From assembly GCA_001792345.1 (NCBI GenBank), contig MGGJ01000013.1, positions 21,371-85,370 on the forward strand: 64,000 nucleotides of DNA, in the 5' to 3' direction. The translations under genes were made by a program, and so were the position numbers. This document shows positions 1 to 31,572 of the stretch, one piece after another (position 1 is the stretch's first letter; the number at the start of each line of letters is the position of its first letter). The notes below the pieces were generated by a model. That model did no database searches and was not told the origin of the DNA. It saw only the letters and a list, made by a program, of their open reading frames with translations. Source of the DNA: Candidatus Woesebacteria bacterium RIFCSPHIGHO2_01_FULL_39_32. GTDB lineage: Bacteria; Patescibacteriota; Microgenomatia; UBA8517.

Positions 1-27
1 GTTAGCGTTGGAGGTAAAAAGGGCGAC

Positions 28-1557
28 TTGTCACAAACGGAAGCAATTAAGATTACTGAAGAAACTTTAGATCAAATAAAAACAAAGGATTCAATTGTTA
101 AGGTAGCTGGAGACATGAATGCGCTAATCCGATTCTTGAACTGGTTCCCCTTGATAAAAAGTGAGGAAAATTTTAGTTTAGGGACAGGATGGAGATATGC
201 AGCAGTTTGTGACACAACCAATGCACTACTCAATGAATTATCTGACGGAACATCATTTTTAGAAGGTTTTTCTGATATTTTTGTAGACTCTTTATTACCA
301 CAAATCAGACAGCTTGATGCAACATCTGCTAAGGGTAGATTTCAAATTCAACTTATTGAAGAAGGCAAATTGTCACCAGAAATATATGATTTAATCCAGA
401 AAAGAGGATCAGAAATAGTAGAAAGAACCTCTGTTGGACTTGTAAATCTGAAAGTAGAGGAAGCAGTAGTTGATCTAAATGAAACTAGACCCAGAGTATT
501 AGTTGGGGGTAAAGCTGCCGGTTTAAGTGAAGCAGTAAAAATATTCGGTAAAGAAAACACCCTCCCTGGATTAACTATTACAACTGAATGGATAAACGAG
601 GTGCTTTTCCAAGACGAAGAGATTAAAACCCTAATTAGTATCTTCGAAAATACAAGTAATATAGGCGAGAAATTTATCCTTGCAAGGGAAATCAGAGATA
701 GGATACATAATTTGAGATTTGTCGACCTGATATCTATACCAACTCATAATAGATATGCCATCAGATCTTCGTCTTATGATGAAGATACCACAAATAATGG
801 TACAGCAGCAGGAGTTTATGAAAGTGTGATTGACGTCGAGGCAACAGGAGTTGAAGCTGCAGTGAAAACTGTTGTCGCATCATTTTTTTCAGAAAAAGCA
901 ATTAGTTTTAGAACCTTACACGGTTTTAGCGACAAACCATCTATGGCAGTAGTAATTAGTCCACTTATCGAAGGAAAGGGCGGAGTTATTATTACCTCAG
1001 GAAACGTAAAAGATTGGGAGCTTTCAGTCGGAAAATCGGCTCAGCATGTTGTTAAAGACGGGGAAACAGGCTTCGACTCTTATAGAAGCATTGATGGAGC
1101 TTTAAAGTATAGATCCGATAATAAAATACTTAAACAAAATGAGGTGCTTATGATTGCTGAGGCGGCCCTTAAAGCAGAACGATTGCTAAAAACCCCCGTA
1201 GATATCGAGTTTGTATTCGATAAGGGGAAGCTGTTAATTCTACAATTAAGGTCTGCATCAAACCAAGGTGATACACAAGCTTATTCATCTGAAAGTACAA
1301 ATGAGATGGAAACAACTACGACTTTACAAGTAGACGATCTTGCAACTCTTTATTCGCTTGGCCAATCGCAGACTAATTTCAAGCTGAGGGTTGGAAAGGA
1401 TATCGACATAGGTCAATTCCAGGGTGAACTGTTAAGATTTCTGGTGGTAAATAGAAACCGTTTAAGGGGGTTAATACTAGAAAGAAGAATACCAAGAACT
1501 AGTCATTTAGCAAATATTTGTGCTAACTTAGGAATTAAAATCGAATTCACGGACTAA
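28..1557 (+). CDS. PEP-utilising enzyme-like protein with an N-terminal PEP/pyruvate-binding (PPDK_N-type) domain
   Basis: Motif VLVGGKAAGLSE resembles the GGKxxxL nucleotide-binding loop of PEP synthase/PPDK N-domains. ORF track 509 aa. Start at window edge is plausible. Confidence 0.5.
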   Translation: MSQTEAIKITEETLDQIKTKDSIVKVAGDMNALIRFLNWFPLIKSEENFSLGTGWRYAAVCDTTNALLNELSDGTSFLEGFSDIFVDSLLPQIRQLDATSAKGRFQIQLIEEGKLSPEIYDLIQKRGSEIVERTSVGLVNLKVEEAVVDLNETRPRVLVGGKAAGLSEAVKIFGKENTLPGLTITTEWINEVLFQDEEIKTLISIFENTSNIGEKFILAREIRDRIHNLRFVDLISIPTHNRYAIRSSSYDEDTTNNGTAAGVYESVIDVEATGVEAAVKTVVASFFSEKAISFRTLHGFSDKPSMAVVISPLIEGKGGVIITSGNVKDWELSVGKSAQHVVKDGETGFDSYRSIDGALKYRSDNKILKQNEVLMIAEAALKAERLLKTPVDIEFVFDKGKLLILQLRSASNQGDTQAYSSESTNEMETTTTLQVDDLATLYSLGQSQTNFKLRVGKDIDIGQFQGELLRFLVVNRNRLRGLILERRIPRTSHLANICANLGIKIEFTD

Positions 1558-2312
1558 TGAACAAAAGAGAATTAGTATTGCTTAAAAAAATTAGTAAAGA
1601 GGCTGTAAGACTAGACTGGGAAAAGGCTTTTAATGGAAAAGCAAAAGGGAACAAGCATCTTTTTAGAGTAAATAAAATTGCAAAGTTTCTTCAAAAAAGG
1701 GAGGGTGGAAACTTATTTTTAATTCTTACTTCAGCCTGGGTACACGACGTCTCTTTAGCGTATGATTGTAACGAATCAGAAAAAAATATAAACAAAAATA
1801 CAAGGCAATTTCTAAGTCAGTTTAACTTACTACCAAATGAAATTAATAAAATAGCCCAATATTCATCTTCACATGAGTCGGGGAGAAAAAATATTCCAAT
1901 AGAGGCCAAGATTGTTCATGATTCTGATGTAATAGATAAAGGTGGAATATTGGGAATCATAAGACATGTCTGGAAAATGACCAATTTACTGGAAAAAAGA
2001 ATATTATCTAATAAGGAAGACCTGGCACAAGTAAAGAAACATCTAAAGGAAAGGGAAAGGAAGGTTTTCACAAAGACATCTAAAAAAATAGTAAAACGAC
2101 TGAATAAAAAAAGAGACGAATTCTTTACTAATGAAGATCGTGCAATTGAGTTGATGAACCAAATATCAATTAAAGCAAATAAGGGTATAAATTCCGACAA
2201 GATTGCCCTCTTCTTGATTAAAACTGAAAAAATATATATTTCTGAAATACTAAGAAATCAACTCGACTGCTCTTATCTAAATCTAAGAATAAAGGAAAAT
2301 TATAAGGAGTAA
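1557..2312 (+). CDS. HD-domain phosphohydrolase
   Basis: H..HD...D motifs (AWVHDVS, HDSDVIDKGG). ATGA overlap with the upstream stop. Confidence 0.55.
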   Translation: MNKRELVLLKKISKEAVRLDWEKAFNGKAKGNKHLFRVNKIAKFLQKREGGNLFLILTSAWVHDVSLAYDCNESEKNINKNTRQFLSQFNLLPNEINKIAQYSSSHESGRKNIPIEAKIVHDSDVIDKGGILGIIRHVWKMTNLLEKRILSNKEDLAQVKKHLKERERKVFTKTSKKIVKRLNKKRDEFFTNEDRAIELMNQISIKANKGINSDKIALFLIKTEKIYISEILRNQLDCSYLNLRIKENYKE

Positions 2313-2401
2313 AAAGTATCAGAGATGAAAAAACTTGTTAAGCCAACTTTGTGTGAAAGATCCCGACGGAGAAATAAAAGAATTTTAAAACTTTTAGAAT
2401 A

Positions 2402-2974
2402 ATGGATAAAGACAGAAAAAATAAATACCAGATACTTATTGATGAACAACATACCAGATGGAAGACGGGTAAACAAGAAGATGGAGAAATAGAGCTTTGG
2501 AAACAATCTTTTGAAGAAAAACCAGCACTTCCGGACCCAAAGGATATGTTTGAAATAGAGATTTCAGACAAAGAAACTCTTCAAAAGATAGGAGTTCCTG
2601 AAGATAGAAAATCCTTATTTATCGAAAGAGAAATAATATTAGATAGCGACCTCGGTGATGAGGTGCTTATAGAAAGAATATATACCTCAAACGCACAAGA
2701 GGAAAAACAAGCAGCATCATATTTAATAATTACTCCGACTGGCGAGACTTTCGGTGACAAATCTATATATAGGTATAACTTATCTACACCCAATCCCAAG
2801 CAAGGATTATCTGGTTTGCTAATTATAAGTAATGTAAGAAGTTTACTCGAAACGCCAATCCCCATAACCCATTCAGAATGGAATCAAGGAAACAGTTTCG
2901 CCGGTCTTTCTAAAAGTGAAGTCAATAAAGCTTTGAGAAACGTAATTGAGTTTAGAGATCGAACAAAGAACTAA
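2402..2974 (+). CDS. hypothetical protein
   Basis: 190-aa ORF with no recognisable motif. Flanked by duplicated copies of the HD-gene 3' end. Confidence 0.35.
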   Translation: MDKDRKNKYQILIDEQHTRWKTGKQEDGEIELWKQSFEEKPALPDPKDMFEIEISDKETLQKIGVPEDRKSLFIEREIILDSDLGDEVLIERIYTSNAQEEKQAASYLIITPTGETFGDKSIYRYNLSTPNPKQGLSGLLIISNVRSLLETPIPITHSEWNQGNSFAGLSKSEVNKALRNVIEFRDRTKN

Positions 2975-2981
2975 TGAACCT

Positions 2982-3110
2982 GATTTCAATAAAAGCAAAT
3001 AAGGATATTAATTCCGACAAGATTGCTTTAATATTGGTTAAAAAAGATAAAACTCCTTTCCCAAAAGCTTTTCTTGAACAACTCCGGTGTAAATATTTAT
3101 AATAGAGTAT
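2982..3110 (+). repeat. degenerate duplicate of the 3' end of the HD-domain gene (partner copy at 2150-2290)
   Basis: About 55 nt at ~85% identity (atgaacc[a/t]gat[a/t]tcaat[t/a]aaagcaaataagg[g/a]tat[a/t]aattccgacaagattgc), then protein-level similarity (MNQISIKANKGINSDKIAL.. versus MNLISIKANKDINSDKIAL..). Confidence 0.6.
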
Positions 3111-3144
3111 TGAGTGAATCTTTAAGTATTGCTAATAAGAATAT

Positions 3145-3173
3145 TTGACAAATGATTAAACCTCCTATAATAT
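3145..3173 (+). promoter_or_regulatory. sigma70-like promoter (TTGACA ... TATAAT/TAATAT)
   Basis: ttgaca at 3145-3150 and tataat at 3166-3171 (15-nt spacer), or alternatively taatat at 3168-3173 (17-nt spacer). Confidence 0.45.
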
Positions 3174-3187
3174 TGCAAATTGCTGTT

Positions 3188-3229
3188 ATGACTACTGGCT
3201 ATTACTATTACTTTAGCCCAAGTTTTTAA
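3188..3229 (+). CDS. leader peptide MTTGYYYYFSPSF (4 tandem Tyr codons)
   Basis: atg act act ggc tat tac tat tac ttt agc cca agt ttt taa. The stop codon lies 5 nt before the terminator stem. It sits between the promoter and the decarboxylase-tyrS operon. Confidence 0.5.
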   Translation: MTTGYYYYFSPSF

Positions 3230-3233
3230 AAGC

Positions 3234-3258
3234 AACGCGCCTTTGAGCGCGTTTTTTT
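3234..3258 (+). terminator. intrinsic terminator / attenuator hairpin
   Basis: aacgcgc-ctttga-gcgcgtt followed by a T7 tract, 16 nt upstream of the decarboxylase ATG. Confidence 0.6.
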
Positions 3259-3274
3259 ATGCAAAAAAAATAAG

Positions 3275-4780
3275 ATGATTGAAGAAAGACAAATACTAAC
3301 AACAGATTTAGAACGAGTAAAAGACTTCTTTGTCGATCCAAGAAACCCACAATCAGCAGAAGATCTTGTTCAAATCGGGGGAGATGCAATACGTGTGATG
3401 GCCCAAATTTATTCCACGGCGGGACAGATTGAGTCAATGCCGCCAAAATTCAGGGATTGGTTGCAAGGCATAAAACCTGGAATGTCGGAACTTGAATCAG
3501 TAACAGGGGAAGTCCTAAGAATGGAAGCAAAAACCCGAAGGTTCGATGAAATGTTCATGGGTCAAATTCATCCACAAGGTAGCAAAATCGGAATAATTTC
3601 TAACTTAGTCGCTGCCTATATGAATAACAATCTAATAGTCGAAGATGTCTCTCAATCTGAAAGAGTAATGGAAAGAGAATCTATTAGATGGCTTGCAGAA
3701 ATTTTGGGATATGAGACCGATTTGGCAGGTGGAAATATCGTTACTGGAGGTACTGAAGCTAATGAAATTGCCCTTATGGTTGCTAGGGAAAAGCTATTGG
3801 ACTCAATGGGTTTGAAGAATCCCCTAAAGAGAGTTAAGAATCCTGTGCAGATGTATGTTTTGACTTCAAGGTGGAAACATTATTCGATAAGTAAAAAATG
3901 TGATGAATTAGGTATTGGTCTTCTGGAAATGCCATCTGATGACTTTAAGATTAATGTTCGCGCAACAGAAAAAGCGGTGAGGAAATTGAGAGAGAGAGGT
4001 AAGCATGTTGTTGCAATAGTCGGGTTAGCCGGCGAAACAGAGACTGGAGCCATTGAAGATCTTGAGGGACTTGCCGAAGTTGCGCATAATACTGATATTT
4101 ATTTCCATGTTGATGCAGCATATGGCGGACCTTTTGTGTTATCTAGAAGAAAAGATCTGTTCAAGGGAATTGAGTACGCAGACTCGGTCACAATAGATCC
4201 ACATAAAATGCTCTACACACCTTATCCTGCAGGAGCAATAGTGTTTAGAAACGCCAGCGATCAAGACTATCTCCACACAGATACTAGATATTTGGGGGCC
4301 GTGGCCTCAACATCCTCTGGATCTAGAAGTACTGCTGGCACAATATCCACTTACGCAACAATTAAACTTCTTGGAAATGATGGTATAGCAACCTTGTTAA
4401 ACCACACACTTGATTTAGTGGAAACAGCATATCATTACGTGGAAGATTCTAGAGTACTTAGAGCTCTACATGAACCGGAACTCAACACTATGTTAATAGG
4501 CCTAACTGATGATGTTAAAACAAGAGCGGCTCAAAGAGGAATTGACGGAAAAGCATACGATGACATGATTTGCGCAGTAATAAGACAAATTGACAATCAT
4601 CGATCTAGAAATCCTTACGTCTCAAACAATAGCGATGTAGATCCTGAAAAACGTTTTGGTAGGATCGGTAAACGAAGTGTTTTTAGATTTATAGCTGTTC
4701 ACCCTTATACAACTCATGAAGATGTCAGAACTACTCTTCAAAGAGTCGAAGAGACAGTTAGTGAAAAAATAGGGCTATAA
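3275..4780 (+). CDS. PLP-dependent group II amino-acid decarboxylase (tyrosine/aromatic decarboxylase-like)
   Basis: SVTIDPHKMLYTPYPAGAI contains the PLP-lysine motif of group II decarboxylases. Confidence 0.8.
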   Translation: MIEERQILTTDLERVKDFFVDPRNPQSAEDLVQIGGDAIRVMAQIYSTAGQIESMPPKFRDWLQGIKPGMSELESVTGEVLRMEAKTRRFDEMFMGQIHPQGSKIGIISNLVAAYMNNNLIVEDVSQSERVMERESIRWLAEILGYETDLAGGNIVTGGTEANEIALMVAREKLLDSMGLKNPLKRVKNPVQMYVLTSRWKHYSISKKCDELGIGLLEMPSDDFKINVRATEKAVRKLRERGKHVVAIVGLAGETETGAIEDLEGLAEVAHNTDIYFHVDAAYGGPFVLSRRKDLFKGIEYADSVTIDPHKMLYTPYPAGAIVFRNASDQDYLHTDTRYLGAVASTSSGSRSTAGTISTYATIKLLGNDGIATLLNHTLDLVETAYHYVEDSRVLRALHEPELNTMLIGLTDDVKTRAAQRGIDGKAYDDMICAVIRQIDNHRSRNPYVSNNSDVDPEKRFGRIGKRSVFRFIAVHPYTTHEDVRTTLQRVEETVSEKIGL

Positions 4781-4795
4781 TCTTTTAAATTAAAT

Positions 4796-5908
4796 ATGCC
4801 TGAGAAAGACATACAATTATTAACTTCCGAAATGATCGCTATTCCTTCTTTGACGACCGATCAAGAAGCTTGCCTTAAGGTACTCGATTATATTTCTTCG
4901 TACCTAGGAAAAGTACATGCAGAAACTTACTTGCATACCGGAGTGTATTCACGCATTTGGGGTGACAACAATACACTTATGAACCCAAGACTTCTTCTTT
5001 CTGGGCATATAGATGTTGTCGACGTAGAGGGTGATGACACTTTATTCCACTCCAAAGAGGAAGCTGGAAAATTGTATGGTAGGGGTGCGGGAGACATGAA
5101 GGGACATGTTGCCTCGATGCTTTACTCTTATAAAAAATGGCTAGAAGAAGGAGGGCCTAGAGGAGTAGGTTTGCTTTTAACTTCAGATGAAGAAATGGGC
5201 GGCTTTAACGGTACGCGGTATGTTGTGGAACAAGGTTTAAAACCCAAAGTTGTATTTATTCCTGATGGAACTCTTGATTTTTCTATTGTCAAATCGCAAA
5301 AAGCGCCCCATCACTTTGTAGTCGAAATTCAAGGACAAGGCGGACACGCTGCAGATTCGTATAAAATTAAGGATCCCATCGATAGCCTAATCGCTTTTTA
5401 TTTACGAGTTCAAGAAAAGTACGATATTGCAACTCCAGAAAACGGTTGGGCTTCAACTTTCAAAATGACCGTTGTAAACACTCCAAACCAATCAAAGAAT
5501 AAAATTCCAGATAGAGTAACGGCAGCTTTTAGTTGGAGGTGGCCACCGGAACAAATCCTTTTTGAGGAAGGTAGGGATGAAATTACCAACTTAGCTAAAC
5601 AATATGGGGTAAAAATCCTTGAAGAGGAAGGTGGAGGTGAAGGATGTATTCTTAACGAAAATGCGGAATTTGTAACTCAATGGAAAACAATTATTGAAGA
5701 AATTATAGGTCGTGGTGTAAAATTCGTCAACATGCATGGTACCACAGATGGCCGACACTTCTATAACAGCAAAGTCGCCGGGACTAAAAATGTACTTGTC
5801 ACCTCAGCAATCTCGGGAGATCACCACCAAAAAGGCGAGTGGGTAGACATTCAAAGTTTGAATCAGTTATCTGGAGCTATTAGTAGGTATATGCGCATTA
5901 GTGAATAA
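4796..5908 (+). CDS. M20 family metallopeptidase (ArgE/DapE/carboxypeptidase-like)
   Basis: Metal-binding motifs LSGHIDVVD and GRGAGDMKG. Confidence 0.75.
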   Translation: MPEKDIQLLTSEMIAIPSLTTDQEACLKVLDYISSYLGKVHAETYLHTGVYSRIWGDNNTLMNPRLLLSGHIDVVDVEGDDTLFHSKEEAGKLYGRGAGDMKGHVASMLYSYKKWLEEGGPRGVGLLLTSDEEMGGFNGTRYVVEQGLKPKVVFIPDGTLDFSIVKSQKAPHHFVVEIQGQGGHAADSYKIKDPIDSLIAFYLRVQEKYDIATPENGWASTFKMTVVNTPNQSKNKIPDRVTAAFSWRWPPEQILFEEGRDEITNLAKQYGVKILEEEGGGEGCILNENAEFVTQWKTIIEEIIGRGVKFVNMHGTTDGRHFYNSKVAGTKNVLVTSAISGDHHQKGEWVDIQSLNQLSGAISRYMRISE

Positions 5909-5910
5909 AT

Positions 5911-7179
5911 ATGTCTTTAGAGCACCATCTTGATCAATTAATAAGTCGAGAACAAGAGCCTGTAACTATTGATGAAACGTTGCGTCGAGGTGTCGAGATA
6001 ATTTTACCTGATCGAAGTAGTCTACAAAGCGAGATGGAACAAAGAAAGGTACGGTTGTATTTAGGAATTGATGCAACCAGCCCAAATCTTCATATAGGTC
6101 ATACAGTCCCACTTCGCAAATTAAGACAGTTTCAAGACTTAGGCCACGAGGTAATATTTCTTTTCGGGGGATTTACTTCCTTGATTGGAGATCCATCAGA
6201 TAAGTCGGCTACTAGGCAAAGATTAACTCCAGAACAGGTTGAATATAATATGGCGACCTATGTTGATCAGGCAGCGAGGATACTTGATTTTTCTCCCAAT
6301 TCACCAAATCCAATTAAAATTATGAATAATGCCGAATGGCTTTCGAAACTTACTCTTGCAGAAGTAATAGATATTCAAGCCAATTTTACAGTGCAGCAAA
6401 TGTTAGAACGAAATATGTTTCAAGAACGAGTGCAAGCAGGAAAACCAATCTGGCTTCAAGAGTTTTCTTATCCATGGATGCAAGGTTGGGATGCTGTTGC
6501 TATGAATGTTGATATAGAAGTTGGAGGTAAAGATCAGCTTTTCAATATGCTTGTTGGCCAAACACTTGTCAGAAGATATAAAGATCACGAAAAATGGGTA
6601 ATAGGCACAAAGCTAATAGAGGATCCAAGCGGCAAGAAAATGGGCAAGACTGAAGGAAATATTGTTAATATACTCGATTGGCCGGAGGTCAAATACGAAG
6701 GAGTCATGGCATGGCCGGATACTGCAATTGGCGTAGGTTTCGAATTAATCACTTCTGTACCAATGGAAGCAGTTTACCAAATACAAGAGGAGGTTTTACC
6801 TCAAACACTTGAGGGAACTAGTGGTATTCACCCCATGGAATTAAAGGAAGCATTAGCGTTTAGGATGGTATTAGAATTAGATGGCGAAGATGCTGCCGTT
6901 TATGCACGAGAAGAATTTGATAGAGTGAAAAGACAAAGACTACTTCCTAGACGAATCCAAGAAATCAACGTTCACGCTGATTCGAGCTTTTTACAAATAT
7001 TAGTTGATTCAAACTTAGCTCCAAACGAAACCGAAGCGCAAAGATTGATTGCATCTGGTGCTATTTATATTGACGGCAAGAAAGAGACAAAAAACAGAAA
7101 TTGGGGAAAAAGCGATGGAACTATTCAAATCGGTACTAAGACAATAAGAAATGTAAGGAGAATCGTTCTACAAGTCTAA
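5911..7179 (+). CDS. tyrS: tyrosyl-tRNA synthetase
   Basis: HIGH motif (NLHIGH), GDPSDK, KMGKTEGN (KMSKS) and a C-terminal S4 domain. Confidence 0.9.
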   Translation: MSLEHHLDQLISREQEPVTIDETLRRGVEIILPDRSSLQSEMEQRKVRLYLGIDATSPNLHIGHTVPLRKLRQFQDLGHEVIFLFGGFTSLIGDPSDKSATRQRLTPEQVEYNMATYVDQAARILDFSPNSPNPIKIMNNAEWLSKLTLAEVIDIQANFTVQQMLERNMFQERVQAGKPIWLQEFSYPWMQGWDAVAMNVDIEVGGKDQLFNMLVGQTLVRRYKDHEKWVIGTKLIEDPSGKKMGKTEGNIVNILDWPEVKYEGVMAWPDTAIGVGFELITSVPMEAVYQIQEEVLPQTLEGTSGIHPMELKEALAFRMVLELDGEDAAVYAREEFDRVKRQRLLPRRIQEINVHADSSFLQILVDSNLAPNETEAQRLIASGAIYIDGKKETKNRNWGKSDGTIQIGTKTIRNVRRIVLQV

Positions 7180-7265
7180 TAAACTACTTCAAAATTAATA
7201 GTAGAATAATTTTATGCTTTGACGCTACGACACTTCTAGACTAAAATATTGATTGAAAGGCTAAA

Positions 7266-8438
7266 ATGCGAAATTTATCCATTGAAGAGGTTCTCACGAG
7301 GGGAGTATCTGATATTTTACCAACTAAAGGGGGCCTCGAAAACTTAATGAAAAGAAGGAAAATAACCCTCTATCAGGGTTTTGACCCTTCTATGCCTAGT
7401 CTTCACTTGGGTAATTATGTTGGAGTACTTAAACTCAGTCAATTTCAGAGGTTGGGTCACAAAGTCATATTTCTTGTAGGGGACTTTACTGGAATGATCG
7501 GAGATCCCAGTGATAAACTGTCCAGTAGAAAACAGCTAACTCGCGAGCAAGTTCTAGATAATGCCAAAAGTTGGAAAAAGCAAATCGAAAACATTCTTGA
7601 CTTTGAAGGAGAAAACAAAACACAAATTCTCTACAATTCAGAATGGAGCGACAAAATTTCTTTTAAGGATTTATTAGAAATAACTTCAAATTTTACCGTT
7701 CAGCAAATGATTGAGCGCGATATGTTCCAAGAGCGCCTCAAATTACAAAAACCAATTCGCCTTCATGAATTTTTATATCCTGTTGCTCAAGGGTACGACT
7801 CTGTCGCTATGGATGTTGACTTGGAAATAGGCGGTAGTGACCAAATATTTAATATGCTTGCGGGAAGAACTTTAATGAAAGCGATAAAAGAAAAGGAAAA
7901 ATATGTCTTGGCTACTAAATTATTGGTCGACAAAGAAGGGAAAAAGGTGGGAAAGACTACGGGGAATGCTTTGTTCTTAGATTCATCACCTGAAAATTTT
8001 TTTGCAGGGATAATGTCTTTTCCAGACGACGTAATTGAACTTAGTTTCGAACTATTAACAGAAATTCTCCTTCGGGGATTGAGTATGAAAATTAAGAAAA
8101 ACCCCTTAGACCAAAAAAAGAGATTAGCATATGAAGTAGTTAAAATTATTTGGGGCGAAACGGAAGCCAAAAAATCACAAGAACATTTTGAAAAGACTTT
8201 TCAGAAAGGAGAAACACCAAGCGAGATAAAGCCTTTGGAAATTAGTGTCAGTGAAAACATTACTGTTACAGATGCCGTTGCCCTAGAAGTAGGGAGCAAA
8301 TCTGAGGCCAAACGACTTTTGGAGCAGAGGGCCATAGAAGTTGATGGAAAAGTAGTTGAAAATCCTAAGGCTGAACTAGTGGATGGAGAAGTTCTGAAAA
8401 TCGGAAAGAAAAAATTCGTAAAAGTTGTCATAAAATGA
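7266..8438 (+). CDS. tyrosyl-tRNA synthetase paralog (HIGH motif altered to HLGN)
   Basis: SLHLGNYVG, IGDPSDK, KVGKTTGN and a C-terminal S4 domain. Tandem to tyrS. A TTGACG-17-TAAAAT promoter-like element lies at 7222-7250. Confidence 0.8.
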   Translation: MRNLSIEEVLTRGVSDILPTKGGLENLMKRRKITLYQGFDPSMPSLHLGNYVGVLKLSQFQRLGHKVIFLVGDFTGMIGDPSDKLSSRKQLTREQVLDNAKSWKKQIENILDFEGENKTQILYNSEWSDKISFKDLLEITSNFTVQQMIERDMFQERLKLQKPIRLHEFLYPVAQGYDSVAMDVDLEIGGSDQIFNMLAGRTLMKAIKEKEKYVLATKLLVDKEGKKVGKTTGNALFLDSSPENFFAGIMSFPDDVIELSFELLTEILLRGLSMKIKKNPLDQKKRLAYEVVKIIWGETEAKKSQEHFEKTFQKGETPSEIKPLEISVSENITVTDAVALEVGSKSEAKRLLEQRAIEVDGKVVENPKAELVDGEVLKIGKKKFVKVVIK

Positions 8439-8607
8439 AAATAAGATTTATCAAAGACAAGAAGAAAGCGTTATTTACTTTAATTTTGGTTCTATCAACC
8501 TTAGGACTTTTGTTGACAACCTTTTTACCACTTCTGTCTCCTTTACTATTCGGATAGGTACCTGCGGGGACAGTCTTCGCAAGTTGTAATATAATGCAAT
8601 TAATAAT

Positions 8608-10644
8608 ATGAAGCTCAGTGCTCCGGTTAGTCGACTGCCAATGGTCGGGCATATTTATGTCAATCGTCTAGAAAAACTCGGTATCAGCACCATCGAAGAT
8701 CTTCTTTACCACGTACCTCACAGATATCAAGATTTCAGAATCGTCTCGGATATCTCTCGAGCTCAAATCGGAGAAGTAGTCACAATTCAAGGAATAGTAC
8801 TATCTATGAAAAATATTTATACGAAATACGGGAAAGTAATACAAAAAGCCGAAGTGCAGGATAAAACAGGACAGATTCAAGTGATATGGTTCAACCAACG
8901 CTATTTGGTTCGTTCGGTCAGAGAAGGGGAAAGGTATTCTTTCTCGGGGAAGGTAGATTGGTTTGATAGAAAAAAGTCTTTAATTTCGCCAGATTTTGAA
9001 AACATACAAAACTCCAACACGACAATTCACACCGGAAGGCTTGTACCAGTCTACCCCGAAACACGCGGAGTGTCTTCGAAGTGGATTCGAGGTAGGGTTT
9101 TCTTTGCGCTAACCGAAGTACAACCATATCTAGAAGAGTTTTTGCCGATCGAGATAATCAAAGAAAATTCATTTATCGATTTACCTAATGCCTTACATAT
9201 TGTCCATTTTCCCGACAATTCTGAAGACGCAGAAAAATCAAAAAAAAGACTGGCTTTTAATGAACTTCTTTTTTATCAGCTAAGAAGTCTTTACCGAAAA
9301 AGTGACTGGAAGAAAATTCCCGCGGTTTTTCAGTTAAATATTAACGAAAAAATAATTAATGAATTTATAAAAACCCTTCCTTTTACTCTAACAAAATCGC
9401 AGCTTCGTTCAATCAAAGAAATTTCCAATGACTTGGAAAAAGAGTATCCAATGAATCGTTTGCTGGAAGGAGATGTTGGTAGCGGAAAAACGGTTGTTGC
9501 AGCAGCAGGCGCTTTTGCTTCATTTGTAAATGGTTATCAGACAGTTGTGATGGCACCAACTCAAATACTTGCCCAGCAGCACTTTGATACATTAAATCAG
9601 ATTTTTGACAAATTTAAAGTACGTGTGAGCCTTATTACATCTGCGGGTGTAAAAGCGGACTTAGGAAAAACAGATATCTTTGTAGGAACCCACGCCTTAA
9701 TCCACAAAAAGGTACAATTCGATAAAGTGGCCTTGGTTGTAATCGACGAACAGCATAGGTTCGGAGTAGAACAGCGTGCACACCTGATACAAAAAACCGG
9801 CAAATCCGCAAGCCGGCGGAAAAAAGCTCCTCACGTTCTAACAATGACTGCAACGCCAATTCCAAGAACCGTTGCATTGACTGTTTATGGGGATCTCGAC
9901 CTATCAACCCTAAATGAACTTCCCAAAGGTAGAAAGCCAGTTACGACCTGGATTGTTCCTCCACATAAACGGGAAGGGGGTTATAACTGGATTCGAGAAC
10001 AAATTAAAAAAGAGGGGGTTCAGGTTTTTATTATCTGCCCCCTAATTGAAGAGTCGCAGGTAGAAACAATGAAACAAGTTAAATCAGCTACAACTGAATT
10101 TGAAAGACTGAAAGATATCTTTCCAGATTTAAAACTAGGGCTTCTCCATGGTAAACAATCGTTGAGCTTGAAAAACGAAGTTTTGGAATCATTTAGAAGC
10201 GGAAAAACACATATCTTAGTAGCTACGCCTGTTGTGGAAGTGGGAATAGACGTTCCTAATGCGACAATTATGATTATAGAAGCTGCTGAGAGGTTTGGAT
10301 TGGCACAGCTGCATCAACTTAGGGGTCGAATTGGTCGCGGAGAAAGAAAATCTTATTGTCTCTTATTCACAAATGTAAGATCAAATACTGTTTTAACAAG
10401 ACTTAATGCACTCACCAAATCAATGTCGGGATTTGAGTTGGCTGAGTTGGATTTACAAATGCGCGGGCCAGGTGAAATGTATGGCATAAAACAGCACGGG
10501 TTCCCAGAATTGAAGGTCGCTTCCTGGAGCGACACAGAGTTAATAAAATATGCACGAGAAGTAGCTCAAGAAGCTCTAGATAAGCCAGAAAAATTTCCTA
10601 AACTTATAAAAATAATCGAATCTAAATCCATCGTCCCGAATTAA
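8608..10644 (+). CDS. recG: ATP-dependent DNA helicase RecG
   Basis: Wedge domain, helicase motifs GDVGSGKT, DEQHRFGV and QLRGRIGRG. Confidence 0.9.
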   Translation: MKLSAPVSRLPMVGHIYVNRLEKLGISTIEDLLYHVPHRYQDFRIVSDISRAQIGEVVTIQGIVLSMKNIYTKYGKVIQKAEVQDKTGQIQVIWFNQRYLVRSVREGERYSFSGKVDWFDRKKSLISPDFENIQNSNTTIHTGRLVPVYPETRGVSSKWIRGRVFFALTEVQPYLEEFLPIEIIKENSFIDLPNALHIVHFPDNSEDAEKSKKRLAFNELLFYQLRSLYRKSDWKKIPAVFQLNINEKIINEFIKTLPFTLTKSQLRSIKEISNDLEKEYPMNRLLEGDVGSGKTVVAAAGAFASFVNGYQTVVMAPTQILAQQHFDTLNQIFDKFKVRVSLITSAGVKADLGKTDIFVGTHALIHKKVQFDKVALVVIDEQHRFGVEQRAHLIQKTGKSASRRKKAPHVLTMTATPIPRTVALTVYGDLDLSTLNELPKGRKPVTTWIVPPHKREGGYNWIREQIKKEGVQVFIICPLIEESQVETMKQVKSATTEFERLKDIFPDLKLGLLHGKQSLSLKNEVLESFRSGKTHILVATPVVEVGIDVPNATIMIIEAAERFGLAQLHQLRGRIGRGERKSYCLLFTNVRSNTVLTRLNALTKSMSGFELAELDLQMRGPGEMYGIKQHGFPELKVASWSDTELIKYAREVAQEALDKPEKFPKLIKIIESKSIVPN

Positions 10645-23820: not shown

Positions 23821-25551
23821 TTATTCCTGAGCTACTCTTAGTACCTCCTCAACTGTAGTTATCCCTTCCAATGCTTTTAAGTAACCGTCTTGTTTAAGAG
23901 TAATCATTCCTTCCTCGCGTGCTTCCTTATCAATTTCTCCAGACGACGCCCTTTCTAATATTAGCCTACTAATTTTTTCAGTCACCGGCAATACCTCAAA
24001 AACCGCAATCCGCCCGTAATAACCTGAATTTGCACATTCTTGATCTCCCGTACCTTTGTATAAAGTATTATCCCGCGCCGATGGCCATAGGTTACCTAAA
24101 ACATTTTTCATTTCTTCAATCACTTTAGGTTCTCCCGAATAAGAAGTCTTACAATCTGCGTGTATTGTCCTTACAACACGCTGGGCAACTATTGCCGTAA
24201 CAGAAGAAGCAATTAGGAAAGGTTCGGCTCCCATATCAATCAATCGTGGCAGTGCACCGGATGAATCATTGGTATGAAGAGTCGCAAAAACAAGGTGTCC
24301 CGTAAGTGAAGCTTGTATGGCTAAATCCGCCGTTTCCTGATCACGAATTTCTCCAACTAAAATTATGTTCGGGTCTTGACGTAAAAAGGCTCTTAAACCT
24401 GAGGCAAAAGTAAGACCTGCCGCCGGATTAACTTGTACCTGATTTACTCCGGCAATTTTATATTCAATGGGGTCCTCTAATGTTACTATATTTACTTTGG
24501 GTGTATTTATTTTTTGAATTATTGAGTAAAGCGTTGTCGTTTTTCCACTTCCCGTTGGACCTGTTATAAGAATAATTCCGTGTGGCCTAAGTATTGCGTC
24601 TTGTAAATTTTTAAGGGCCCTACCTCGAAGACCCAACTCCTGCAATTCCGGAACTCCGCCGGTTTTTCTAAGTAATCTCATCACAATTTTTTCTCCCCAA
24701 GTAGTCGGAAGCGTAGAAACACGTAAATCAACTTCTTCATCTTCTGTTTTAAAATTAAAACGTCCATCTTGTGGAACGCGTTTTTCGTCAATCTTCATTC
24801 CCGACAGAATCTTGATCCTGGAAATAAGAGCATCATGAAGTTCTCTGGGAATTGTTAATTTTTCTTGTAAAATGCCGTCAATTCTATATCGAACCCGCGT
24901 TGCTCTTTCCTGAGACTCAATATGCACGTCCGAAGCCCTTGCCTTAACCGCAAAACCTAAGATATGAGTAACTATTTCTGCAACTTTTTCCTCACGAATT
25001 AAACCTGTTTTTGTTGCGTCAAGCGTTTTTATTTTGTCGCGGGAAGGAGATTCACGTAAAGCTTCTGAAACTTCTTTTGCAAGAGAGGTGGTGTAACCCG
25101 CTGCAATCATCGTCTCGATCTTTGCGGGATCGGCTGCGTGAGGCTTTACGATATAGCCTGTTTTTTGCTCGACGAATTCAATCGCAGTTAAGTTCAGGGG
25201 ATCTGCCATTGCGACAACAACTTGCTTGTTGGGGAGGTCAATTGAAACGGGGAAAACTTTAAATCTCATCGCAACCTCTTGAGGCAAGATTGACAGCGCT
25301 TCCGGGGAAACTGGAATATTAGTTAAATCGATATATGGAATGTTGTATAGAGCAGCTTTTGCTTTTACCAATGCTGATTCATCTACTAAGCCTTGATTTA
25401 TTATTATTTCTTCCTGGGGTTTGCCGGTCTGAATCTCAGAAAGTTTAATTTGTTCAGCACGAGCCGAGTCTAATGCTCCGAGAGAAACCAGAATATCTGC
25501 TAAAGTTTTGGAGTCTGAGTTAGTTAAAGATGATTGTGATTGGGCAGGCAT
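23821..25551 (-). CDS. pilB: type IV pilus extension ATPase PilB (GspE family)
   Basis: TGPTGSGKTTTLY and an N-terminal GspII_E-like domain. 576 aa. Confidence 0.9.
   Translation of the reverse strand: MPAQSQSSLTNSDSKTLADILVSLGALDSARAEQIKLSEIQTGKPQEEIIINQGLVDESALVKAKAALYNIPYIDLTNIPVSPEALSILPQEVAMRFKVFPVSIDLPNKQVVVAMADPLNLTAIEFVEQKTGYIVKPHAADPAKIETMIAAGYTTSLAKEVSEALRESPSRDKIKTLDATKTGLIREEKVAEIVTHILGFAVKARASDVHIESQERATRVRYRIDGILQEKLTIPRELHDALISRIKILSGMKIDEKRVPQDGRFNFKTEDEEVDLRVSTLPTTWGEKIVMRLLRKTGGVPELQELGLRGRALKNLQDAILRPHGIILITGPTGSGKTTTLYSIIQKINTPKVNIVTLEDPIEYKIAGVNQVQVNPAAGLTFASGLRAFLRQDPNIILVGEIRDQETADLAIQASLTGHLVFATLHTNDSSGALPRLIDMGAEPFLIASSVTAIVAQRVVRTIHADCKTSYSGEPKVIEEMKNVLGNLWPSARDNTLYKGTGDQECANSGYYGRIAVFEVLPVTEKISRLILERASSGEIDKEAREEGMITLKQDGYLKALEGITTVEEVLRVAQE

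Positions 25552-28960: not shown

Positions 28961-31572
<2,612 letters not shown>

Follow-up and report, generated by a model that had tools for sequence, protein, structure and literature searches.

A tyrosine-codon leader upstream of a probable decarboxylase-hydrolase-tyrosyl-tRNA synthetase operon in a Woesebacteria genome, compared with the tyramine loci of lactic acid bacteria

The linkage of an aminoacyl-tRNA synthetase (aaRS) gene to the amine (tyramine, histamine) clusters of lactic acid bacteria has been called 'a general feature' (PMC3315439). In the tyrosine decarboxylase (TDC) operon of Enterococcus and Lactobacillus, tyrS-tdc-tyrP-nhaC, the gene for a tyrosyl-tRNA synthetase (TyrRS) sits beside the decarboxylase gene and expression is tied to tyrosine (PMC3315439, PMC12607914), while the linked TyrRS forms its own clade, apart from a second TyrRS encoded elsewhere in the genome (PMC3315439). 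Here, we have analysed a 64,000-nt stretch from the tiny genome of Candidatus Woesebacteria bacterium RIFCSPHIGHO2_01_FULL_39_32 (contig MGGJ01000013.1, positions 21,371 to 85,370; hereafter the window), in which genes for a decarboxylase, an M20 hydrolase and two TyrRS copies (c1 and c2) follow one another. We consider it probable, at roughly 0.6, that c2 is an ordinary TyrRS and that the decarboxylase, the hydrolase and c1 are encoded by an operon under the control of a tyrosine-codon leader.

With respect to gene content, the locus repeats the pattern of the TDC operon, and to that extent its description as tyramine-locus-like in a first-pass annotation of this DNA holds: a decarboxylase is accompanied by its own TyrRS paralogue, c1, which likewise stands in a separate clade. 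The resemblance does not extend to the TDC enzyme family, the T-box, the Tyr/tyramine antiporter or NhaC. The decarboxylase is not of the enterococcal type and belongs to a different group II family, scoring 76.6 bits against the enterococcal TDC model (TIGR03811; cut-off, 905.3) and matching the TDC entries of the PDB (5hsi and 7cwx) with only ~72 bits over short stretches. Both TyrRS copies are of the Thermus type, whereas that of the TDC operon is of the Bacillus type, and the window has an M20 hydrolase instead of a T-box, TyrP or NhaC. Furthermore, a leader peptide on the decarboxylase gene appears to sense tyrosine here, whereas in enterococci a T-box on tyrS does so and induces at low tyrosine, and the probable direction of control here is opposite to that of the tyrS T-box. 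Since the locus differs in enzyme family, T-box, TyrP/NhaC and TyrRS subtype, we regard it as a convergent analogue rather than a member of the TDC operon family.

Reading of the open reading frames (ORFs) in the window bore out four collinear plus-strand genes at 3275-8438, together with the motifs quoted in the first-pass annotation. They encode a 501-aa group II pyridoxal phosphate-dependent decarboxylase with the motif DPHKMLYTPY (deC, 3275-4780; Pfam PF00282 Pyridoxal_deC, 129 bits); a 370-aa M20 metallohydrolase of the ArgE/DapE deacylase type (4796-5908; Pfam Peptidase_M20 and M20_dimer); c1, of 422 aa, with HIGH, GDPSDK, KMGKT, GGKDQ and YPWMQGWD (5911-7179); and c2, of 390 aa, with HLGN, GDPSDK, KVGKT and an S4 domain (7266-8438). 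The intergenic gaps measure 15 nt (deC-M20), 2 nt (M20-c1) and 86 nt (c1-c2). Because c1 begins only 2 nt past the M20 gene, it belongs to the decarboxylase operon. The 86-nt gap holds a promoter-like site (7219-7247, plus strand; TTGACG, 17 nt, TAAAAT; a consensus match only), and no terminator-like site was found on the plus strand between c1 and c2. The genes deC, M20 and c1 probably form one operon behind the leader and terminator described below, and c2 probably has its own promoter. The possibility that the tandem TyrRS genes reflect an assembly artefact or a recent tandem duplication was rejected, as the copies are only 42% identical, fall into separate clades with 100% bootstrap support and lie in a region recovered in independent assemblies (proteins P0001, P0121 and P0241 from other records are 99-100% identical).

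The 300-nt gap upstream of deC contains, in order, a promoter-like site (3145-3173, plus strand; perfect TTGACA -35 box, 17 nt, TAATAT; again a consensus match only), a mini-ORF, an intrinsic terminator and the deC start codon at 3275. The mini-ORF (3188-3229, plus strand), as read from the sequence, would encode MTTGYYYYFSPSF through the codons ATG ACT ACT GGC TAT TAC TAT TAC TTT AGC CCA AGT TTT TAA, with four Tyr codons in a row. The terminator (3227-3260, plus strand) has the stem AACGCGC/GCGCGTT (3234-3253) with a 6-nt loop, an A-tract extension that begins at the leader stop codon, and a U7 run. A mini-ORF with a Tyr run lies just upstream of deC in all nine distinct loci of the decarboxylase clade (the window and eight loci of relatives, numbered L083 to L173 below). 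The runs are YYYY, YYY, YCYY, YY or YYYYY, and the peptides are otherwise unrelated (MLNSEYYYLSKDNA in L083, MNSLVYYYRILISV in L089, MTLLPGYCYYIINTSV in L091, MDDPLPEYLYSTQ in L087, M..IFYYYHN in L088, MIYYSLGF in L090, MDIYYIFAFES in L092 and M..SNYYYYYFF in L173). A perfect TTGACA box occupies the equivalent place in L083, L089, L090, L091, L092, L173 and L094, the last being the locus of a more distant decarboxylase discussed below, and perfect GC-rich stems of 6-9 bp followed by a U-run are present in 9/9 loci, although the stem sequences differ, i.e., the whole stem covaries. In L173, the decarboxylase is 35% identical to that of the window and the Tyr leader is present without a nearby TyrRS gene, which indicates that the leader belongs to the decarboxylase and not to the TyrRS.

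To quantify this pattern, a composite scan was applied, which required Tyr codons clustered in a short ORF, a distance of 20-30 nt from the final one to a terminator stem and a stop codon ≤15 nt ahead of that stem. The scan returned 11 matches in the clade loci (nine distinct), all upstream of deC, compared with one match in 2.6 Mb and none in 1.19 Mb of control sequence. When other codons were substituted, the clade loci gave no match for Asn, Phe, Lys, His or Asp and five for Ile. Elsewhere in the window, YYY mini-ORFs at 25393-25473 (plus strand) and 29576-29623 (minus strand) were dismissed as chance occurrences, being antisense inside long ORFs. Searches of 2200-8800 with Rfam returned no T-box at the gathering score or at E ≤1, nor any other known leader; the matches below threshold were only unrelated sRNA families overlapping the terminator. 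The leader, whose translation is predicted from the sequence, is very probably a genuine tyrosine-responsive element, and it links the operon to tyrosine by a route that does not involve the TyrRS genes. We found no paper on leader-peptide attenuation in Patescibacteria or on this TyrRS paralogue. Between the terminator and deC, a tiny ORF encoding MQKK (ATG CAA AAA AAA TAA; 3259-3273, plus strand) has its start codon at the tail of the U-run and its stop codon 1 nt ahead of the deC ATG, with no obvious Shine-Dalgarno sequence. The same arrangement, GCGCGTTTTTTTATG, occurs in L083 and L089, and in L091 the corresponding ATG is the decarboxylase start itself; this ORF may serve as a translation-coupling or reinitiation device.

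The geometry of the leaders bears on the direction of control. In the decarboxylase-clade loci, the leader stop codon overlaps the terminator stem or sits ≤12 nt from it, and 22-27 nt separate the final Tyr codon from the stem that follows it, the distance being exactly 22 nt in five loci. Eight of the nine leaders (all but that of L173) were folded with the ribosome footprint masked. When the ribosome was modelled at the Tyr codons, the terminator formed in all eight, and an antiterminator was predicted in none; when it was modelled at the stop codon, the hairpin was abolished in five, the window included. Since no antiterminator is predicted, the operon is probably read through only when Tyr-tRNA is plentiful. 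In the mechanism that we propose, the leader would be translated while RNA polymerase transcribes the terminator, with two outcomes: (i) if Tyr-tRNA(Tyr) is plentiful, the ribosome would reach the stop codon, which is embedded in the 5' side of the stem, so that the hairpin would be blocked and transcription would enter the operon; and (ii) if Tyr-tRNA(Tyr) is scarce, the ribosome would stall at the Tyr run, 22-27 nt short of the stem, allowing the hairpin to form and transcription to stop. The decarboxylase, most likely converting tyrosine to tyramine, would be made only at tyrosine surplus; the M20 hydrolase probably frees the amino acid for it from peptides or N-acyl forms; and c1 would sustain the charging of tRNA-Tyr, and with it the open state of the attenuator, as the tyrosine pool drains and a tyrosine-like amine accumulates. 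We judge it likely that the operon is indeed on when Tyr-tRNA is well charged.

An alternative is classical attenuation, in which the operon would be on when Tyr-tRNA is scarce. It would then serve as a starvation response in which M20 frees tyrosine and c1 adds charging capacity, both of which suit a supply role, and the decarboxylase would not act in catabolism, having a non-catabolic role or an unrelated substrate. A terminator preceded by a run of regulatory codons is, after all, the hallmark of biosynthetic attenuators, and in three of the eight folded leaders (L087, L088 and L090) the hairpin core survived with the ribosome at the stop codon. The enterococcal tdc-linked tyrS, too, is induced by its T-box at low tyrosine (PMC3315439). 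On the other hand, the absence of an antiterminator from all eight predictions and the formation of the terminator in every leader with the ribosome at the Tyr codons do not fit this design, and a stop codon in the stem or no more than 12 nt away from it leaves no room for a 'region 2'. Two of the loci further contain a second kind of leader for comparison: Tyr/Phe leaders MFVAPTYYYFYFKNLK (L087:14396-14510) and MFQSYYYFYYFTK (L088:14733-14844) stand upstream of genes for 3-deoxy-D-arabino-heptulosonate 7-phosphate (DAHP) synthase, prephenate dehydrogenase (TyrA) and TyrRS. In the L087 biosynthetic leader, the terminator lies ~50 nt past the stop codon, and the predicted structure is an antiterminator (GGTTGGGTT with AACCCGACC) with a stalled ribosome but the terminator with a ribosome at the stop codon. 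This leader would thus have the design of a classical biosynthetic attenuator, clearly different from that of the decarboxylase leaders, with the TyrRS there co-regulated with tyrosine biosynthesis. The opposite designs within L087 are what would be expected if biosynthesis is on at tyrosine scarcity and the decarboxylase at surplus, since the reverse, with tyrosine synthesis and a Tyr-linked decarboxylase both on, would be futile. Taken together, these points make classical attenuation of deC unlikely in our view. Induction at surplus has its own weak points: besides the three surviving hairpin cores, the fold of the L088 biosynthetic leader is ambiguous, the evidence for direction consists of geometry and thermodynamic folding, and the decarboxylase leader of L087, L088 and L090 is placed downstream of the TyrRS paralogue, which is hence outside its control.

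The proposed switch combines features of several described systems. Like the classical attenuators (trp, pheA and his), it places codons for the regulatory amino acid, repeated within a short ORF, ahead of an intrinsic terminator, and it departs from them in the lack of a predicted antiterminator, in the position of the stop codon and in that a decarboxylase is regulated. In the E. coli pyrBI and rph-pyrE leaders, as would be the case here, the hairpin is kept from forming by a ribosome that translates as far as the terminator or across it. Read-through in those leaders depends on the closeness of the ribosome to the polymerase, and the input is the speed of the polymerase, set by UTP, whereas here Tyr-tRNA would provide the input by setting how fast the ribosome passes the Tyr codons. 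In its outcome, the switch would resemble TnaC (tryptophanase) and SpeFL (ornithine decarboxylase, speF-potE), leaders through which an abundant amino-acid substrate turns on its own catabolic or decarboxylase operon (PMC8429421; bioRxiv 10.1101/604074). In these, however, the free amino acid is sensed in the exit tunnel and Rho-dependent termination is blocked. A plain run of Tyr codons with an intrinsic terminator implies that the leader described here would sense charged tRNA instead.

The identity of the decarboxylase was approached through curated families and solved structures. It scores 175 bits against the NCBIfam model for MfnA (TIGR03812; cut-off, 299.4) and 171.8 bits against that for PanP (TIGR03799; cut-off, 606.1), and all 45 aligned members of its clade match both models at E ≤1e-10, the best values being 1e-57 and 9e-56. 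As the two families are matched about equally and below their cut-offs, homology does not name the substrate. The nearest PDB entries are diaminobutyrate (DABA) decarboxylase 2qma and MfnA 3f9t. Archaeal MfnA is therefore both the best-scoring curated family and among the nearest structures; it differs in that the score stays below the cut-off with PanP equal, that the enzyme here is ~120 aa longer and that its clade is restricted to Microgenomates, comprising ~100 clusters at ≥35% identity before a drop to ≤33%. We favour tyrosine as the substrate, with tyramine as the product. The M20 protein scored 132.4 bits against the NCBIfam ArgE/DapE model (TIGR01910; cut-off, 217.6), which places it in the M20 superfamily without assigning a subfamily, and its nearest PDB entry is DapE (72 bits); its gene overlaps or abuts deC in L083, L090, L092 and the metagenome contig JGI 3300072015. 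A related observation concerns a distant sister of the decarboxylase (27% identity) on metagenome contig Ga0075683_117 (L094), which lies behind a Phe-rich mini-ORF, MNPKDFAFKFFFIEKELK plus stop codon, with a TTGACA/TAGAAT promoter (L094:3983-4112). The stop codon of this leader runs into an A-tract, an imperfect hairpin and a U8 run, and 22 nt once more separate its final Phe codon from the stem; the neighbouring genes encode MR_MLE, aminotransferase and M20 proteins and, farther away, another M20 protein and a c2-like TyrRS. This one example suggests that the leaders are matched to the substrate of each decarboxylase, in which case the L094 enzyme would be expected to prefer Phe.

The two TyrRS copies can be told apart by their relatives. 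Both pass the tyrS equivalog cut-off of NCBIfam TIGR00234 (113.8 bits), c1 with 288.1 bits and c2 with 331.9 bits, and both are nearest to the Thermus/Acinetobacter/Helicobacter type of bacterial TyrRS. As had been stated in the first-pass annotation, both carry an S4 domain, that of c2 being matched by Pfam at 24.5 bits and that of c1 falling under the threshold in a protein whose predicted structure is nevertheless full length. Their class I signatures are HIGH and KMGKT in c1 and HLGN and KVGKT in c2, and their tyrosine pockets are nearly identical, c2 having kept LYQGFDP, GDPSDK, YPVAQGYD and GGSDQ. It had been proposed that the HLGN copy is the diverged paralogue, whether regulatory, inhibitor tolerant or weakened, and that the HIGH copy is the housekeeping enzyme. 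Seen in a single sequence, the replacement does look suspicious, since it is this second His through which the B. stearothermophilus TyrRS touches ATP at the transition state. However, c2 is 100% identical to an NCBI Woesebacteria protein (P0121), HLGN is present in 115/120 of its nearest homologues and HxGN in 13/80 single-copy TyrRS of Patescibacteria spread over several candidate phyla; since a sole TyrRS must work, Asn in place of the second His is a recurrent, tolerated variant. An engineered His48Asn variant of the B. stearothermophilus enzyme, from Fersht's group, reportedly retains near-wild-type activity, and TrpRS naturally carries TIGN. A TrpRS identity for the HLGN copy was itself rejected, with 20.6 bits for the trpS model against 332 for that of tyrS.

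In a bootstrapped neighbor-joining tree (106 sequences, 383 columns and 50 replicates), c2 falls, with 100% support, into an HLGN clade together with the RecG-adjacent TyrRS of L083 and L089. Downstream of c2 lies a RecG helicase gene (8608-10644, plus strand; NCBIfam RecG, 813 bits), a synteny anchor that also adjoins TyrRS in L083, L087 and L089 and in 18/80 control loci. The search with c2 returned at least 8000 significant matches, compared with ~90 clusters at 90% identity for the c1 clade. The second copy, c2, groups with a widespread TyrRS clade with no link to decarboxylases, an outcome that the first-pass annotation had itself named as refuting its reading, and the c1 clade is the rare, decarboxylase-linked one. 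The copy with HLGN, which also has the higher tyrS score, is the normal and presumably housekeeping TyrRS of the lineage, at the ancestral TyrRS-RecG position; c1, in spite of its HIGH motif, would be the specialised paralogue, and the reversed assignment is very improbable. The variant is a normal one for this lineage and no sign of decay, which corrects a tempting misreading. Bootstrap support for the deep branching among the three TyrRS groups was 16-50% in this neighbor-joining analysis, and because it is low we make no claim as to which group gave rise to c1.

The c1 clade (100% bootstrap) consists of Woesebacteria and Amesbacteria sequences and takes in the deC-adjacent TyrRS of L083, L087, L088, L089 and L091; the nearest homologues have HIGH or HLGH and the clade signature GGKDQ, YP[LW]MQG[WY]D and KMGKT. 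Among 43 clade members, the pocket and catalytic residues Y50, D94, Y187, Q191, D194, Q209, H61, H64, K243 and K246 are invariant, the pocket positions having been matched to Y34, D78, Y169, Q173, D176 and Q195 of the B. stearothermophilus enzyme by motif alignment. The AlphaFold (AF2) model of c1, with a mean predicted local distance difference test (pLDDT) score of 91.9, fits the T. thermophilus TyrRS:tRNA-Tyr structure over 447 columns with a template modelling (TM) score of 0.76-0.78, and the match spans the full length, including the C-terminal S4-like tRNA-binding domain. On these grounds of sequence and model, c1 is an intact and probably active TyrRS. That it acts as a charging safeguard made together with the decarboxylase is a proposal to which we give even odds; hypothetically, c1 might in addition tolerate tyramine, and a literature search on the inhibition of TyrRS by tyramine yielded nothing usable. 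The idea that a TyrRS paralogue serves as the tyrosine sensor finds no support for either copy, as it is the leader peptide that appears to sense. A pair of full-length TyrRS is also known from B. subtilis (TyrS and TyrZ), one of them auxiliary, conditional and Thermus-like (PMC9437257); TyrZ differs in being controlled by a MarR protein and a T-box, in its selectivity against D-Tyr and in having no link to a decarboxylase, and here both copies are Thermus-like.

Two other roles for c1 deserve consideration. The first is non-translational: c1 would either serve a small-molecule pathway or act as a regulator, by activating tyrosine or by binding tyrosine or tRNA-Tyr, in partnership with the decarboxylase, M20, a PPDK_N-like protein, an HD-domain protein and sometimes GNAT or EamA proteins, the product being derived from tyrosine or tyramine. 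Non-translational aaRS paralogues are well known (PMC9437257), the PPDK_N-like/HD pair lies directly upstream at many loci and in 0/80 controls, and weak GNAT matches and EamA genes occur nearby. Moreover, catalytic motifs are altered in some deC-linked TyrRS. In Collierbacteria, the deC-adjacent TyrRS (L090:7635-8858, LCHG01000008.1) is an independent duplicate of the TyrRS of that lineage; with its HIGR and KMSSS motifs, it may be inactive or non-catalytic, and an Amesbacteria member of the c1 clade (L091:10525-11778) carries GGSEQ and GDPKTG. Such degenerate motifs hint that catalysis is not always the trait selected. Against a non-translational role, the Woesebacteria clade retains all catalytic and tyrosine-pocket residues and the C-terminal tRNA-binding domain and c1 passes the tyrS cut-off; the PPDK_N/HD pair is missing from L088, L089 and L091 and is a separate transcription unit in the window; and no biosynthetic scaffold genes were found. 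We therefore regard this role as improbable. The second is self-resistance against a TyrRS inhibitor made by the cluster or by neighbouring organisms, as second aaRS copies in biosynthetic clusters often confer; the case of TrpRS and indolmycin is cited in PMC9437257. Here, genes recognisable as belonging to inhibitor biosynthesis were not found, c1 and c2 hardly differ in their tyrosine pockets and the operon is wired to tyrosine supply rather than to a toxin signal, which leaves self-resistance with a very slight probability.

The association of these genes was assessed against two control sets, namely 80 further TyrRS loci of Patescibacteria, each taken with ±10 kb of flanking sequence, among the matches listed in the contig profile search, and 80 generic group II decarboxylase loci, among the matches listed in the metagenome contig search, which also yielded L094. 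Genome contigs queried with a single protein gave no match, and the profile search brought up, among the matches listed, ordinary Patescibacteria TyrRS but no member of the c1 clade. A second TyrRS, a homologue of this decarboxylase and the PPDK_N/HD pair were each absent from all 80 TyrRS control loci, M20 gave one weak match among them, and TyrRS was nearby in only 1/80 decarboxylase control loci. The four-gene arrangement can hardly be due to chance. In 7/9 distinct contexts, a c1-clade TyrRS has the decarboxylase no farther than two genes away, including the window, L083/L084 (a complete 1.08-Mb Woesebacteria genome), L087, L088, L089 and two JGI contigs, and at least 36 c1-clade matches are on contigs of the same size as those of decarboxylase-clade matches, which we use as a proxy for one and the same contig (five pairs were verified). 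A search starting from the decarboxylase added L091 (Amesbacteria-like), where a c1-clade TyrRS abuts it, and L090 (Collierbacteria), where the independent duplicate adjoins it. A check of relatives for the gene set, as the first-pass annotation had advised, thus showed the decarboxylase-TyrRS linkage to be kept across Woesebacteria, Amesbacteria and Collierbacteria, usually together with M20. In L087 and L088, the two TyrRS genes flank a set that encodes chorismate mutase, prephenate dehydratase, an aminotransferase, DAHP synthase and prephenate dehydrogenase, which marks the locus as an aromatic amino-acid island.

Several observations do not sit easily with a tyrosine-controlled decarboxylase operon that includes c1 as a spare synthetase: (i) the decarboxylase is absent from the c1-clade loci L081 and L085, and in L173 it occurs without a TyrRS within 9 kb; (ii) by hidden Markov model it is as near to PanP, which acts on aspartate, as to MfnA, which acts on Tyr or Asp; (iii) a functional difference between c1 and c2 is not visible in the c1 model, and the HIGR and KMSSS motifs of the Collierbacteria enzyme fit a pure spare-synthetase role poorly; and (iv) the window has no homologue of the EamA transporter of its relatives and no transporter gene in 1-10644. 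In those relatives, EamA (DMT-family) transporter and GNAT-like acetyltransferase genes stand beside the module (L083:10263-12095, L092:12727-13302, JGI 3300072015 and 3300071358), and their products may export or modify the amine. As to the two c1-clade loci that lack the decarboxylase, L081:7746-10260 contains the closest relative of c1 (69% identity), with a divergent ELFV-family amino-acid dehydrogenase gene in place of deC and M20, directly upstream of the TyrRS and with no Tyr leader, and a D-Tyr-tRNA deacylase gene 5 kb downstream. In L085:7756-10245, the c1-clade TyrRS forms a tandem pair with a third, highly divergent TyrRS, 28% identical to each copy of the window, that has KFGKT and Bacillus-like motifs; the neighbours encode an M15 peptidase and an MR_MLE epimerase, with no decarboxylase.

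To our knowledge, almost nothing is known of gene regulation in the Candidate Phyla Radiation (CPR)/Patescibacteria. A conserved attenuator that senses tRNA charging would imply coupling of transcription and translation in these bacteria, and it offers a concrete, testable element. What is new here is a conserved clade of decarboxylase-linked TyrRS and a Tyr-codon leader of unusual geometry, while the HLGN point proved ordinary. The design is unusual in that a codon-run leader appears to induce a catabolic operon at amino-acid abundance. The pairing of a decarboxylase with a dedicated TyrRS recurs far from lactic acid bacteria and provides a second system in which to ask why amine clusters hold an aaRS. 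The model also predicts that Microgenomates of groundwater and sediment produce tyramine or a related aromatic amine, which would bear on the energy and pH economy of minimal fermenters and on exchanges with their hosts. More speculatively, and in our view rather doubtfully, the parts could make up an independently evolved tyrosine homeostasis circuit of Microgenomates, with an inverse attenuator that gauges Tyr-tRNA charging by the speed of the ribosome, a surplus-licensed decarboxylase, a TyrRS partner that is specialised (for example, tyramine tolerant or adjusted to another range of tyrosine) or non-catalytic, and a family of substrate-matched switches. If this were so, the pairing of an aaRS paralogue with an amino-acid decarboxylase would be a convergent design principle common to Microgenomates and lactic acid bacteria.

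Upstream of the leader, the window begins within a gene for a PPDK_N-like (ATP-grasp/dikinase-like) protein (1-1557, plus strand; Pfam PPDK_N, 88 bits), of which the C-terminal two-thirds or so are present, the remainder being cut by the left edge. Its reading frame is already open at nt 1 and corresponds to residues 270-784 of a homologue of 788 aa in L083, and the score is far under the cut-offs for phosphoenolpyruvate synthase; in these proteins of ~790 aa, only the ATP-grasp region is recognisable. Its stop codon overlaps the start of an HD-domain phosphohydrolase gene (1557-2312, plus strand; Pfam HD, 28.5 bits), which is followed by a gene for a 190-aa hypothetical protein with no family match (2402-2974, plus strand). 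A PPDK_N-like gene, always paired with an HD gene, is found directly upstream of the module in L083, L090, L092 and JGI 3300072015. Finally, among the TyrRS homologues, P0098 (659 aa) is fused to the B3_4 domain of the PheRS beta subunit, and in L091:5909-6568 a free-standing B3_4 protein adjoins an ordinary TyrRS. Both echo the B2-TyrRS fusions known in CPR bacteria, described in a study that concerns archaeal-type enzymes (PMC5370408).

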